Shown here: in pieces, positions 1 to 44,235 of the stretch | Layout of the letters: every line of letters starts with the position of its first letter | Position numbering within the stretch: the stretch's first letter is position 1 | DNA from: Alphaproteobacteria bacterium | Lineage (GTDB): Bacteria; Pseudomonadota; Alphaproteobacteria; Bin95 | Reading direction: 5' to 3' | NCBI GenBank assembly: GCA_965205265.1 | Contig: CBDBGH010000003.1 | Coordinates: 64,001-128,000, forward strand | Length of the DNA stretch: 64,000 nt | Notes under the pieces: model-generated | Seen by the model: the letters and a program-made list of their open reading frames with translations, nothing else | What the model was told of the DNA's origin: nothing | Database searches by the model: none | Program-made: the position numbers and the translations under genes

Positions 1-421
1 GGTCGGTCCACCGCTTGCGCTTCCGCGGGCGCCGGGCGAGGCGGGTTTCGCGGGTCAGGCCGTGGCGCCTCAGGAAGCGCTGCACCGTGGTCGGGTGGAA
101 CTCCAGCCCCTCGGCGGCGAGCGCATCGCGCAGCCCGTACATGGAAAGCCCCGGCCGCGCCTCCAGAATGCGCAGGATGCGCGCGCGCTCCGGCCCGATC
201 TGCGAGCGGCGGCCGCCCCGCCTGTCGGCCCGCACATGGCCGCGCTCGCGAAACCGCTTCACCCAACCCCAGACACTGCTCTTCGGCAGGCCGAACCGCC
301 GCGCCGCCGCACGTATGCTCATGCCCTCGCGCAGCACGGCCGCCACCGCCGCCGCCCGCAGGTCCTCGCCCACCGCCCGGCCCCGCCGCCGCCCCGGCAA
401 TCCGTCCACGGGTCCGTCCAT
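1..421 (-). CDS. IS630-type N-terminal HTH protein (runs off window start; not in ORF track)
   Basis: Manual minus-strand translation from ATG 421: MDGPVDGLPGRRRGRAVGEDLRAAAVAAVLREGMSIRAAARRFGLPKSSVWGWVKRFRERGHVRADRRGGRRSQIGPERARILRILEARPGLSMYGLRDALAAEGLEFHPTTVQRFLRRHGLTR..., the IS630 OrfA double-HTH pattern; purine-rich RBS upstream. Confidence 0.8.
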   Translation of the reverse strand, partial: MDGPVDGLPGRRRGRAVGEDLRAAAVAAVLREGMSIRAAARRFGLPKSSVWGWVKRFRERGHVRADRRGGRRSQIGPERARILRILEARPGLSMYGLRDALAAEGLEFHPTTVQRFLRRHGLTRETRLARRPRKRKRWTD

Positions 422-639
422 CGCCCTGTCTTTTCCTCTGGCGATTCCGCCGCCGCGAACCGCCCCTTTTCGGCCGAAATCGACCGCCACGTCCGGCCGT
501 CCGGCCGCACCTCCCCTCTGGGTCGGCGGGGGCCCCGGTCAGCGGTCCTCACGCCTTCGGTTTCGGTGCTTCGCAAGGGCGGCGCAAGCCGCCGCCGGTC
601 GGTCAGGTCATGGCCTCTCTCGGCATGTTTTCTTGGTAA

Positions 640-675
640 GAAGGGATATATAGAGAACAAATAGCCTGGAGTCAA
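640..675 (-). promoter_or_regulatory. sigma70-type promoter TTGACT-N17-TATATA with degenerate LexA-like box GTTC-N7-ATCC over the -10
   Basis: AT-rich island; -35 at 675-670, -10 at 652-647; box 644-658 has 2 mismatches to alphaproteobacterial GTTC-N7-GTTC. Confidence 0.55.
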
Positions 676-715
676 GCTGATCGGGGCCGTTTCCTCCCCC
701 GTCATGCCCCCGTAT

Positions 716-803
716 CGTCATGCCCGGACTTGTTCCGGGCATCCCCCGCCGCCGCTTCCACCGCACGGCCGCATGGATACCCGGAACAAGTCCGGGTATG
801 ACG
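716..803. repeat. Alphaproteobacterial REP/RIME-like palindromic element
   Basis: CGTCATGCCCGGACTTGTTCCGGGCATCC (716-744) and its near-perfect inverse GGATACCCGGAACAAGTCCGGGTATGACG (775-803); each arm is itself a hairpin. Confidence 0.85.
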
Positions 804-926
804 GAGGAGAGGCGCTCTTCGACAGGCTCCTTCGATACGCGGCTGCCTGCCGGGCGGCGTTGACGGCGGAAGCGGCGCCGGCCCAGACTGGCGGACGGCG
901 GCAGAGGGGGAGGAGGCCCGCGGCCC

Positions 927-22285: not shown

Positions 22286-22361
22286 TGGTGCCGCGCGCAG
22301 GATTCGAACCCGCGGCCTGCCGATTACAAATCGGCTGCTCTACCGACTGAGCTAGCGCGGC
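22286..22361 (-). tRNA. tRNA-Thr(UGU)
   Basis: GCCGCGC/GCGCGGC acceptor stem, AGCTCAGTCGGTAGAGC D arm, GCCGA-TTTGTAA-TCGGC anticodon arm, GGTTCGAATCC T loop, encoded CCA; 76 nt. Confidence 0.97.
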
Positions 22362-42583: not shown

Positions 42584-43000
42584 TCAGGGCGTGGGCGCGT
42601 AGGGGTCGTAGGAGCCGAAATTCCAGAGATGCCCCTCCGGGTCGAGCGCGCCGTAGAGCTGCCCGCCATAGGGCTGGTCCTCCGGCGCCATCACGACCTC
42701 CGCCCCGGCGGCCGCGGCGCGCGCATGGTGCGCGTCCACATCGGCCACGATCAGGTAAGGGCACTGCGTCTGCCGGCCGCCGACCTCGCCGGGCGAGACC
42801 ATGCGCGTGTCGTAGTCCCCGTCGCGCGCTTGGCCCAGCATGACCATGCCGTGGCCGAAGGTCAGCTGCGCATGCTCGATCGCGCCGTCCTCGCCCTCGA
42901 CCACGAGATGGCGTTCGAAGCCGAAGGCGCGGCAAAGCCAGTCCAGCGCCGCGCGGGAATCGCGATAGCGGAGCGTCGGAATTACGGTGGGCGTCGGCAT
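42584..43000 (-). CDS. VOC/glyoxalase-family protein
   Basis: LDWLCRAFGF, HAQL, DQPYG, DPEGHLW. Confidence 0.88.
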   Translation of the reverse strand: MPTPTVIPTLRYRDSRAALDWLCRAFGFERHLVVEGEDGAIEHAQLTFGHGMVMLGQARDGDYDTRMVSPGEVGGRQTQCPYLIVADVDAHHARAAAAGAEVVMAPEDQPYGGQLYGALDPEGHLWNFGSYDPYAPTP

Positions 43001-43080
43001 CGGGACCCCCTTCGTGAGCGGCCGGTCGCCGCCATTGGTCGCGCGCCTCCGCCCGCCGGTCAAGCCCGCCCGATAGAGGA

Positions 43081-43126
43081 TTTATTTCTCAAAAAAGCTT
43101 GCAATCCTCCCGTCGCGCGCTATATT
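43081..43126 (+). promoter_or_regulatory. sigma70-type promoter TTGCAA-N16-TATATT with upstream A/T tract
   Basis: TTTATTTCTCAAAAAAG UP-like tract; -35 at 43099, -10 at 43121; no credible sense gene downstream. Confidence 0.65.
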
Positions 43127-43257
43127 CCCTTCCCGGGTGCGGGTTGGAAGCGGGACCATGACTTGGACTTGAGCGGACGGGCGGTCGGGCCCCATGCAGC
43201 GAGAACCGGAAGCGTGAAAGCGCCGCGCGGCGGCAAACGGGGGAGTTGCGTGCGCGC

Positions 43258-43410
43258 GCCGGGGCGCCGGCGGAAATCATGCGGGCAGGTTTCACACGCC
43301 CGCCCCTTGTCCGGAGCCTGCGTCTCCGGCCGGGCGCGCCGGGGCGGCCCGGTCTGCGCCTGCCGGGGCGCCGGCGGAAATCATGCGGGCAGGTTTCACA
43401 TGCCCGCCCC
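43258..43410. repeat. Two 49-bp direct repeats (period 104 bp)
   Basis: GCCGGGGCGCCGGCGGAAATCATGCGGGCAGGTTTCACA(C/T)GCCCGCCCC at 43258-43306 and 43362-43410, one mismatch. Confidence 0.95.
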
Positions 43411-43792
43411 GACGGGGCCGTGCGAGCGGTTTCTTGCGGGGGCGGCCCTTCTTCAGCGTTACACCGTGGCGTTTCAGGAACCCCCGCATGGCGCGGTAGC
43501 CGAAGATCAGACCGCGCCGGGCCAGCACCGAGCGCAGCGCGGTGGCGGTCAAATCCGGATTTTTCGCGACGATGCCGAGGATCGCGTCGCGTTCGGCGTC
43601 GATGCGCCGGGGCGAGCGGTCGCCGCCCATCGGGCGGCGCTCCGGGCTGCCGTTCTCGCGTTCGAGCGCGCGCCAGTTCACGATGGTGTTCACGCTTATG
43701 CGGAACCGCGCCGCCGCCGCCCGGTAGGACAGCCCTTCAGCGACGGCTTCGAGCACGCGAACCCTGAGATCGTAGGAAAGGGGTTTCGCCAT
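43292..43792 (-). CDS. Stand-alone IS630-type HTH protein, no DDE domain
   Basis: MAKPLSYDLRVRVLEAVAEGLSYRAAAARFRISVNTIVNW...PMGGDRS...NPDLT...FLKRHGVTLKK; RBS GGGAGG. Confidence 0.85.
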   Translation of the reverse strand: MAKPLSYDLRVRVLEAVAEGLSYRAAAARFRISVNTIVNWRALERENGSPERRPMGGDRSPRRIDAERDAILGIVAKNPDLTATALRSVLARRGLIFGYRAMRGFLKRHGVTLKKGRPRKKPLARPRRGGHVKPARMISAGAPAGADRAAPARPAGDAGSGQGAGV

Positions 43793-43828
43793 ATCCGCCG
43801 GACCTCCCTTGCCGGCGGGGCCGGTTTG

Positions 43829-43843
43829 GAACAAAATAAGAAT
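43829..43843. promoter_or_regulatory. LexA-like box GAAC-N7-GAAT abutting a TACAAT -10 of the HTH gene
   Basis: GAAC-AAAATAA-GAAT, one mismatch to alphaproteobacterial GAAC-N7-GAAC, about 37 bp upstream of the ATG. Confidence 0.65.
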
Positions 43844-44235
43844 ATTGTAAAGGGCCGAACGCGCCGGCCGCGCAGATCCGGCAAAGCTGCCGCAGACTGC
43901 GCACCGACCTGCGGATCGGACGGAATGCCTCGCGGGCGAGGTCATGGCGATGCGCCGGGAGGAGCCTGCCCGGCCTGTGACGGTGGGAGCGGACATGGCC
44001 CATAATACGGCGGCGTTCGTCGGGACCCGCAAAGCCTTCGGCGCCTGGCCGGCAAGGCTTTCCGTCCGCAAGTCCGCACTGCTGCACCGAAATCCGCTGC
44101 CTCGTTCCCTCCGAAGAAATCCACCCGACCGATACGTTCGCGCCGACAGGCACCCATAGGAATCGCGACTTGCCGCGTTCTTCCGCAGCCTGCCAGGACG
44201 CTACAATCCGCGTCCGATGCACGGAGTTCTGAAAG

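Follow-up and report, generated by a model that had tools for sequence, protein, structure and literature searches.

The DNA analysed here, called the window, is a stretch of 64,000 nucleotides (nt) from a 5.7-Mb alphaproteobacterial genome of 68% G+C (G000:C3:64001-128000; coordinates beginning with C3 refer to the same genome). It carries two genes for small helix-turn-helix (HTH) proteins related to the transposases of IS630-family insertion sequences, and each gene is accompanied by a non-coding stretch, denoted copy A (the leader stretch at HTH gene 1) and copy B (the stretch at HTH gene 2). The two stretches are members of one family of promoter-bearing modules, and it is this family, its origin and its possible function that are described below.

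HTH gene 1 lies at 1..421 on the minus strand and encodes 141 amino acids (aa), with its ATG at 421->419 and its last codons and stop just to the left of the window. Copy A (422..677, minus strand) forms its promoter and 5' leader. The predicted promoter (644..675, minus) has TTGACT as -35 (675->670) and TATATA as -10 (652->647), separated by a 17-nt spacer; it is not called by a strict promoter scan, the -10 having no T at position 6. A mini open reading frame (mini-ORF) at 603..611 (minus) reads ATG ACC TGA (Met-Thr-stop) and is preceded by the purine tract GAGAGAGG. Further downstream is a G-rich box (503..520, minus, CAGAGGGGAGGTGCGGCC).

HTH gene 2 (43292..43792, minus strand, 166 aa) has its promoter region at 43829..43856 (minus, CTTTACAATATTCTTATTTTGTTCC). 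Copy B (43086..43285, plus strand) has no HTH gene after it on its own strand, and points into the 3' end of HTH gene 2. Its predicted promoter (43079..43126, plus) consists of an A/T-rich upstream tract, TTGCAA at 43099-43104, a 16-nt spacer and TATATT at 43121-43126, with TAGAG upstream. The mini-ORF of B (43158..43172, plus) is ATG ACT TGG ACT TGA (Met-Thr-Trp-Thr-stop), and the G-rich box is at 43234..43260 (plus, CAAACGGGGGAGTTGCGTGCGCGCGCC).

Both proteins match the IS630 transposase model NF033545 over positions 2-121 of its 299 only, with 61 bits for HTH gene 1 and 45.8 bits for HTH gene 2 against a cut-off of 100. An earlier note on this DNA, made from the sequence alone, had guessed that the two genes encode only the HTH part of a transposase, and the confinement of the matches to the N-terminus of the model agrees with this. 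The Pfam matches of both are HTH_23, HTH_28 and HTH_Tnp_Tc3_2, and there is weak sequence similarity to the PAI subdomain of Sleeping Beauty and to the Paired domain; the product of HTH gene 1 is predicted to be a paired-like double HTH. No DDE-type catalytic domain is present in either protein, the reading frames ending at 141 and 166 aa. A relative of the HTH gene 1 protein of 246 aa or longer was not found, which is weak evidence, and four long frames in related sequences (L078-L081), considered as full-length transposases of this type, proved to be GC-rich chance frames, the HTH genes themselves ending at about 140 aa. Proteins of the family are annotated only as "helix-turn-helix domain-containing protein", "transposase" or "hypothetical", in metagenome-assembled genome records labelled Alphaproteobacteria bacterium.

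Homology of the two copies and linkage to HTH genes

The earlier note proposed that A and B are homologous on the basis of five collinear blocks, and all five are in place. The -10 block is CTATATATCCCTTC in A (minus, about 654->641) and CTATATTCCCTTC in B (43120-43132). CCATGAC is shared at 613->607 and 43156-43162, and opens the mini-ORF in both copies as claimed (ATGACCTGA in A, 611->603; ATGACTTGGACTTGA in B, 43158-43172). The third block is AACCGAAGGCGTGA (562->549) against AACCGGAAGCGTGA (43204-43217), the fourth GGGGAGGTGCG (516->506) against GGGGAGTTGCG (43240-43250), and the fifth GGCGGAATC (451->443) against GGCGGAAATC (43269-43278). The -10 block, the mini-ORF and the GGGGAG box turn out to be islands conserved throughout the family, but the other two blocks do not. 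The AACCGRARGCGTGA block is restricted to the subfamily of A and to B-type copies, and GGCGGAATC lies in a variable part of the leader, while its counterpart in B is within a local 56-nt duplication (described in the last section); the likeness of this last block is probably due to chance.

Alignment of A with B against dinucleotide-shuffled controls, proposed in the earlier note as a check, gave a borderline result that depends on the scoring scheme. For three schemes and 500 shuffles, the local alignment had z=3.19 (3/500 shuffles as high), 0.80 (111/500) and 3.63 (0/500), and the semi-global alignment had z=2.59, -0.66 and 3.98; the best blastn high-scoring segment pair had E=0.064. The pairwise evidence alone could not settle the question. 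The decisive test was a leave-out nhmmer profile, built from 13 other leaders of the genome, without A, without the 95% identical twin of A and without B. Searched across the 5.7-Mb genome, it matches A at E=1.5e-9 (window 671-473, minus) and B at E=1.2e-5 (window 43120-43276, plus), the latter improving to E=2.2e-6 when B alone is omitted from the profile. Since the profile finds both, A and B are true, if distant, members of one family, as the earlier note had supposed. The contrary view, that two GC-rich intergenic regions, each with an AT-rich promoter, resemble each other by chance, could appeal to the blast-like scoring, which is not above the shuffles, and to the poor blastn value; it is however refuted by the genome-wide significance of the profile matches, and about 80% of B can moreover be aligned with the modules at orthologous H2 loci of two other species. 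The linkage statistics given next also agree with true homology, and we regard chance resemblance as extremely improbable.

The earlier note also claimed that copies of the element go with IS630-type HTH-only genes in two geometries, as a 5' leader and pointing head-on into the 3' end, and both geometries recur. A tblastn search finds about 15 further paralogs of HTH gene 1 with 50-81% protein identity (H1 type), and three genes of the type of HTH gene 2, itself included (H2 type). The motif [AG]TGA[CT]NTG(GAYYTG)A occurs within 400 nt upstream at 15 of 20 loci examined, and all 15 are H1-type paralogs, full or decayed, with the 5' leader geometry. The remaining five comprise one locus with the motif further upstream, one gene fragment and three loci of H2 type. 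Copy A, together with its gene, has a 92% identical DNA copy at C3:2545589-2544943, and the repeat shared with C3:2545589 (92-95%) starts exactly at window 677, at the -35 of the promoter of A.

A search with nhmmer, which the earlier note had suggested for finding further copies and their co-occurrence with HTH-only genes, gave 21 copies in the genome at E<=7e-5. All but two adjoin an HTH gene or a remnant of one (19/21). Sixteen are directly upstream of an H1-type gene or remnant, and two to three are convergent at the 3' ends of H2-type genes (B, C3:2470542, and a weak match at C3:1800714). One of the H1-type genes is itself cut by a ~100-nt repeat.

The association extends to other species. 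The H1 family is present in 14 of the 16 sampled genomes of the genus, with up to 42 matches per genome, and is matched only weakly outside it, in 3 of 24 genomes; public data contain at least 296 H1 protein clusters. The module is upstream at 21 of 22 strong-match H1 loci from other species (the exception being L045) and at none of six weak-match loci. Among 23 loci found with an H2 query, 13 carry a convergent mini-ORF, located 103-264 nt past the stop of the HTH gene and in each case with a -10-like TATAT some 35-40 nt before it. Two further loci have the mini-ORF on the HTH strand, and three of the misses are intact insertion sequences resembling the ISX elements described below.

A complementary search started from the module itself, using a sequence-only model of 28 diverse copies. 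Since only the 150 best first-look candidates were scored in each genome, the counts are lower bounds. In two other complete genomes of the genus, 28 of 34 model matches adjoin an HTH gene. The first, G011, has at least 27 matches, comprising 19 upstream on the same strand, one convergent, one tandem downstream, one at a distance of 928 nt, and five with no HTH gene nearby; the second, G008, has at least seven, six of them upstream of an HTH gene and one convergent. The model has no matches in G001, G003 and G015, which are members of the genus without the H1 family. A class-wide spread of the module was considered and rejected, the 16-nt mini-ORF pattern having five single matches in 400 other genomes of the class (one other genus member) against six in the present genome. 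The module appears to be a genus-specific, non-coding element of about 170-200 bp that occurs in two arrangements, as the 5' leader of H1-type genes and convergent at the 3' end of H2-type genes. A third arrangement was observed at two H2-type loci (G011:C1:740595-740720 and L064), where the module is downstream of the HTH gene on the same strand.

Conserved islands and relation to IS630 left ends

The upstream regions of the paralogs align as three conserved islands, with variable GC-rich sequence between them. The first is the promoter, over which many copies have a sequence matching an alphaproteobacterial LexA operator. The direct repeat GTTC-N7-GTTC overlies the -10, always on the sense strand, and is perfect in 10 of 41 leaders and present with one mismatch in a further 13; random 50-nt windows of the genome have a perfect box in 0.07% of cases and one with a single mismatch in 1.9%. 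The two lexA genes of the genome (C3:193357 and C3:5303876) have a perfect GTTC-N7-GTTC box in their promoters, of the form GTTCTATAT(A/T)(A/G)GTTC, and recA has one with a single mismatch. In the whole chromosome there are only 13 LexA boxes with an AT-rich spacer, five of them in leaders and two at lexA. GTTCN7GTTC is the entry for the Caulobacter SOS box in Table 1 of PMC9578287. The module promoters resemble alphaproteobacterial LexA promoters: the box is a direct repeat, and its AT-rich spacer also serves as the -10, the arrangement seen at the two lexA genes here. The two copies in the window differ from this pattern, A having a degenerate box, GTTCTCTATATATCC (658->644), with two mismatches, and B having no box (its best match has four). 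The promoters of H2-type genes follow the pattern CTTTACAAT(A/G)TTC-N7-GT(T/G)C, with a box of at most one mismatch in 16 of the 21 loci listed; that of HTH gene 2 itself contains ATTCTTATTTTGTTC (43843->43829), with one mismatch.

The second island is the mini-ORF, which has the form ATG-AYN-(TGG-AYY)-TGA and is therefore two or four codons long. Its start (ATG or GTG) and its TGA stop are intact in 40 of 40 leaders. The second codon is ACC, ATC, ACT or ACG, and the long form adds TGG and one of ACC, ATC, ACT and ATT, so that variation is limited to the second and third positions of the sense codons. In 34 of the 38 leaders with a called -10, the start follows the first base of that -10 by 35-43 nt, and a purine tract of variable sequence precedes the start. 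The sequence features of a leader minigene, namely a start, one to three sense codons, a stop and a ribosome-binding tract, are present in 40/40 leaders. The four-codon mini-ORF of B is an in-frame 6-nt duplication (GACTTG) of the two-codon ATGACTTGA found in the orthologous modules L056 and L057. A longer frame passing through the first TGA (by selenocysteine, tryptophan or readthrough) was rejected, there being no conserved extension and anything from 0 to 77 codons after the stop.

The third island is the G-rich box (consensus CARACRG-GNGAGSTGCGC), which lies 65-125 nt beyond the mini-ORF, after a variable GC-rich stretch of 70-120 nt. A small protein starting at the box was considered and rejected, as there is no start codon at a usable distance and the insertions and deletions, judged by eye, are not multiples of three. 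The box marks the end of the conserved part. Up to the G-rich box A is 68-96% identical to its orthologs, between the box and the HTH start 44-98%, and in the coding sequence 73-90%. Conservation from the promoter to the box is about equal to that of the coding sequence, a level not reached in the stretch beyond the box. B-type copies comprise this conserved part and nothing more, ending at the G-rich box.

The origin of the mini-ORF box is indicated by intact IS630-family elements in the same genome. There are two kinds, ISX (five copies, for example C3:4409230-4408173, outside the window) and ISY (seven copies, for example C3:925313-924257, also outside), nearly identical within each kind, about 1.06 kb long and with CTAGAGC termini. 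Their transposase is split into an HTH frame (orfA) of ~140-150 aa and a second frame of ~230 aa, an arrangement that suggests programmed frameshifting. ISX carries ATGATCTGACCTGA 8 nt from its left terminus. Allowing at most one edit, ATGAYCTGGAYCTGA occurs 12 times on both strands (11.4 Mb), in six leaders, in the five ISX copies and once elsewhere; in all five ISX copies the box is 8 nt from the CTAGAGC terminus. Relatives of ISX in three other species have RTGATCTGAYCTSA at the same place in the left end. The box is absent from the right end of ISX and from both ends of ISY. Because the mini-ORF box is common to the module and the left terminus of ISX, the module can be described as an expanded, promoter-capped and domesticated derivative of an IS630 left end, corresponding to the 5' UTR close to the terminus. 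It has remained joined to the OrfA-like, paired-type HTH gene retained from the same element.

The units themselves are domesticated and vertically inherited, and do not look like mobile insertion sequences. In five other species the genes on either side of unit A are the same as here, and near-identical multiple copies were not found among the paralogs, whose proteins are 50-81% identical, with one pair 92% identical in DNA. Inspection by eye of the window 677 boundary and of the conserved ends of H2 modules showed no inverted pair of terminal repeats. The H2 module is gained or lost on occasion, since a metatranscriptome contig from a relative of ~90% identity connects 43065 with 43176 and 43219 with 43866, 83 other letters lying between, and the relative thus lacks the promoter of B, its mini-ORF and most of the B plus H2 module.

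Compared with IS630/Tc1-mariner elements such as ISY100, the H1 and H2 proteins correspond to the N-terminal paired-like domain, and the mini-ORF box is shared with the left terminus of an intact element. They differ in having no DDE part, in the divergence of the paralogs (50-80% identical), in the synteny of unit A across five species, and in the length of the module leader, which is 190-350 nt against ~60 nt in ISX. Insertion sequences also make small OrfA-type HTH-only regulators, such as InsA of IS1 and OrfA of IS911. These likewise consist of only the DNA-binding part of the transposase, and ISX and ISY also have a separate orfA; here, however, the HTH gene is on its own, behind an SOS-type promoter and a long conserved leader, and is present in 10-42 copies per genome.

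Proposed function and alternatives

On the basis of these observations, we hypothesise that the module is an SOS-linked cis-regulatory promoter and leader carrying a translated minigene, a reading to which we give somewhat better than even credence. A strong sigma-70 promoter would drive the module, and in most copies a LexA operator, GTTC-N7-GTTC, would overlap its -10. In H1 units such as A, the module would be the promoter and 5' leader of the HTH gene, and from the operator matches we infer that LexA would bind there and make transcription inducible by DNA damage. The minigene of two or four codons near the 5' end would be translated, and would thereby determine in cis what becomes of the long leader mRNA or how it is translated; the G-rich box, which resembles a Shine-Dalgarno (SD) sequence, would close the module after the variable GC-rich stretch. 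In H2 units such as B, the module, here without a LexA box, would fire head-on into the gene from 100-260 nt beyond its stop codon, and the outcome would be convergent or antisense transcription that opposes an HTH gene with a LexA-like box in its own promoter.

SOS-induced genes opposed by a constitutive antisense RNA are known from symE/SymR and tisB/IstR-1, and the geometry at B, where the ATG of the mini-ORF is 137 nt beyond the stop of HTH gene 2 and points in, with no terminator called, fits a cis-antisense RNA of an SOS gene. The likeness is that at H2-type loci a predicted promoter without a LexA-like box faces a gene that has one. The proposed H2 arrangement differs in that the opposing promoter is beyond the 3' end rather than at the 5' end or ribosome-binding site, and in that the protein is a DNA-binding domain and not a small toxin. 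For the leader minigene, LEE1/ler of enterohaemorrhagic Escherichia coli (PMC3262186) and axe-txe (PMC8708949) have two-codon leader minigenes whose translation acts in cis on the downstream gene. As in those systems, the putative minigene consists of a start, a single sense codon and a stop, close to the 5' end of a leader of ~170 nt or more that precedes a regulator gene; the differences are that the distance to the HTH start is here long and variable (109-355 nt), and that a four-codon variant with tryptophan also exists.

Several points weigh against this proposal. SOS control appears to be a trait of the family, judged from the box matches, and can be predicted less readily for A, with its two mismatches, and for B, with no box. 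The SD-like tract before the mini-ORF is modest, with a mean duplex energy of -4.8 kcal/mol against a control median of -3.8, and with energies of -4 or below in 65% of leaders against 49% of control windows. The mini-ORF box, made of one or two tandem GAYCTG hexamers and located in a transposon terminus, would also fit a protein-binding DNA site. Two of the 21 copies in the genome (C3:801897 and C3:1028905) are orphan or truncated, and 5 of the 27 model matches in G011 are also without an HTH gene. No terminator or attenuator hairpin was called at A or B, and no conserved RNA structure was found that a ribosome on the minigene could remodel. Finally, no RNA-seq run of the organism was found. 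One sponge metatranscriptome shares 9% of the words of a 6-kb stretch; contigs from it extend over the gene next to B (42584-43063) in the ~90% identical relative but not over the promoter of B, 43338-43806 or HTH gene 2, which says nothing about absence.

The earlier note had gone further, and proposed an HTH protein plus RNA module. This is supported only in part: the linkage to HTH-only genes holds, and the tests of RNA structure give no support to a structured or functional RNA as the partner. Rfam has no match at gathering scores anywhere in the window, and around A and B only sub-threshold chance matches at E<=10; a riboswitch or other known RNA was accordingly rejected, the only matches near A being in a neighbouring repeat (DUF3800-IV, below the cut-off) or implausible. 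The folding energy of the first 200 nt is ordinary, with a mean z of -0.45 over 40 copies. RNAalifold, run on an alignment of a 12-copy subfamily, gave a covariation term of +1.08 with compensatory changes in 3 of 38 pairs, and the covariation score of the same alignment was 0.115, against 0.109 in shuffles, 90 of 500 of which were as high. A conserved hairpin before the G-rich box, with covariation judged by eye, was also rejected, the mean stem there being 5.7 bp against 6.0 bp at random anchors, and stems of 6 bp or more occurring in 50% against 58%. With 68% G+C and 40 copies, of which only 12 are alignable end to end, these tests are low-powered, and amount to a failure to support rather than an exclusion.

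The same results bear on the idea that the first 150-180 nt are a small-RNA gene in its own right, whose product would act in trans or as the partner of a protein, and which is merely carried beside the HTH genes, the H1 genes then being read through or having start sites of their own. Such an arrangement would explain why conservation ends after the G-rich box while what lies between the box and the HTH start differs in both length and sequence from copy to copy, why the stand-alone copies (B-type, and the two orphans) are exactly the conserved part, and why a strong promoter of the module's own is kept in every arrangement. However, the stretch has neither a terminator nor an Rfam relative, and its folding, covariation and hairpin positions are as in the controls, so that we consider a small-RNA gene unlikely. 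Partner RNAs encoded by transposons do exist, as in the bridge RNA of IS110 and the omega RNA of IS200/605, and these resemble the present case in having a conserved non-coding segment at the end of an IS-derived unit, beside a protein gene; they are unlike it in that no recombinase or nuclease is present here, and no conserved secondary structure or covariation was found.

The principal rival to the leader proposal is that the islands are DNA sites. The mini-ORF box, and perhaps the G-rich box, would be bound by the paired-type HTH proteins themselves, having been inherited from an IS630 terminal repeat, and the boxes, placed at roughly +25 to +40 and +120 to +160 relative to the start site, would function as operators in autoregulation or as roadblocks. 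That the start and stop codons are intact would in this case be a side effect. We consider this possible though doubtful; it is compatible with LexA control and does not exclude the leader reading. It has in its favour that intact ISX elements and their relatives carry the box at their left end, 8 nt from the terminus, that the hexamer occurs in one or two tandem copies, that RNA structure is unsupported and the SD signal modest, and that the H1 and H2 proteins are just the domain that binds terminal repeats; for ISY100, PMC2170065 describes binding of the terminal repeats of IS630/Tc1-mariner elements by an N-terminal transposase domain with two HTH motifs. But the box is absent from the right end of ISX and from both ends of ISY, so that it is no obvious shared transposase site, and the start, the threonine or isoleucine sense codons and the TGA are kept in 40 of 40 leaders, in 13 H2-type copies and in the ISX copies. 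The purine tract that precedes the ATG, whose sequence varies, also weighs against this rival.

A more speculative suggestion is that the module is more than a promoter and leader. Its RNA might be a partner or antagonist of the HTH protein, in an IS630-derived protein-plus-RNA unit maintained in 10-42 copies without a transposase. Alternatively, 20-40 SOS-controlled minigenes might act together once DNA is damaged; ribosomes, or tRNA-Thr and tRNA-Ile, might for instance be sequestered by peptidyl-tRNA drop-off, as with the bar minigenes of lambda. Either form seems rather unlikely to us, although the tests that were run have little power against them.

To our knowledge, domesticated DNA-binding domains of transposases are well known in eukaryotes, whereas bacterial cases have received little study. 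In the one uncultured alphaproteobacterial genus considered here, the paired domain of an IS630 OrfA-type protein has given rise to a large gene family that is inherited vertically. Every member has kept part of the old transposon end as its control region, remodelled to include a predicted SOS operator and a putative two-codon minigene. The components are all of known kinds, but the combination and the family are not described, and full-text searches of the literature gave no description of an SOS-linked IS630-derived HTH family. If both LexA control and translation of the minigene prove correct, these bacteria would have an entire family of DNA-binding proteins within their SOS regulon, the family would be a natural, many-fold replicated case of minigene-based leader control, and there would be a clear example of the end of an insertion sequence turning into a promoter and leader. 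The contrast between the sense leader and the head-on promoter is a natural experiment, in which one element would serve for both activation and opposition.

Neighbouring repeats and tRNA genes

The window also contains repeats close to both copies. A 56-nt direct repeat is present at 43251-43306 and 43355-43410 (95% identical, spacing 104 nt). The first copy begins within the G-rich box of B and the second lies inside the 3' end of HTH gene 2. Because of this repeat, the last ~35 residues of the 166-aa protein are read from duplicated non-coding sequence. The contigs of related strains break at the repeat.

Directly upstream of the promoter of A (window 693-817) is a repeat of ~100-125 nt with two hairpin arms (…CATGCCCGGACTTGTTCCGGGCAT… and …ACCCGGAACAAGTCCGGGT…). 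It has far more than 80 copies in the chromosome, with 82-92% identity, several of which are next to or inside other HTH units. It shows a sub-threshold resemblance to the Rfam DUF3800-IV RNA (28.6 bits, cut-off 60.7), and the syntenic loci of other species do not match this segment.

Genes for tRNA-Asn(GTT) and tRNA-Cys(GCA) are found directly downstream of HTH gene 1 (C3:63702-63903, to the left of the window; L024 1201-1402), and another tRNA gene is at window 22289-22361.

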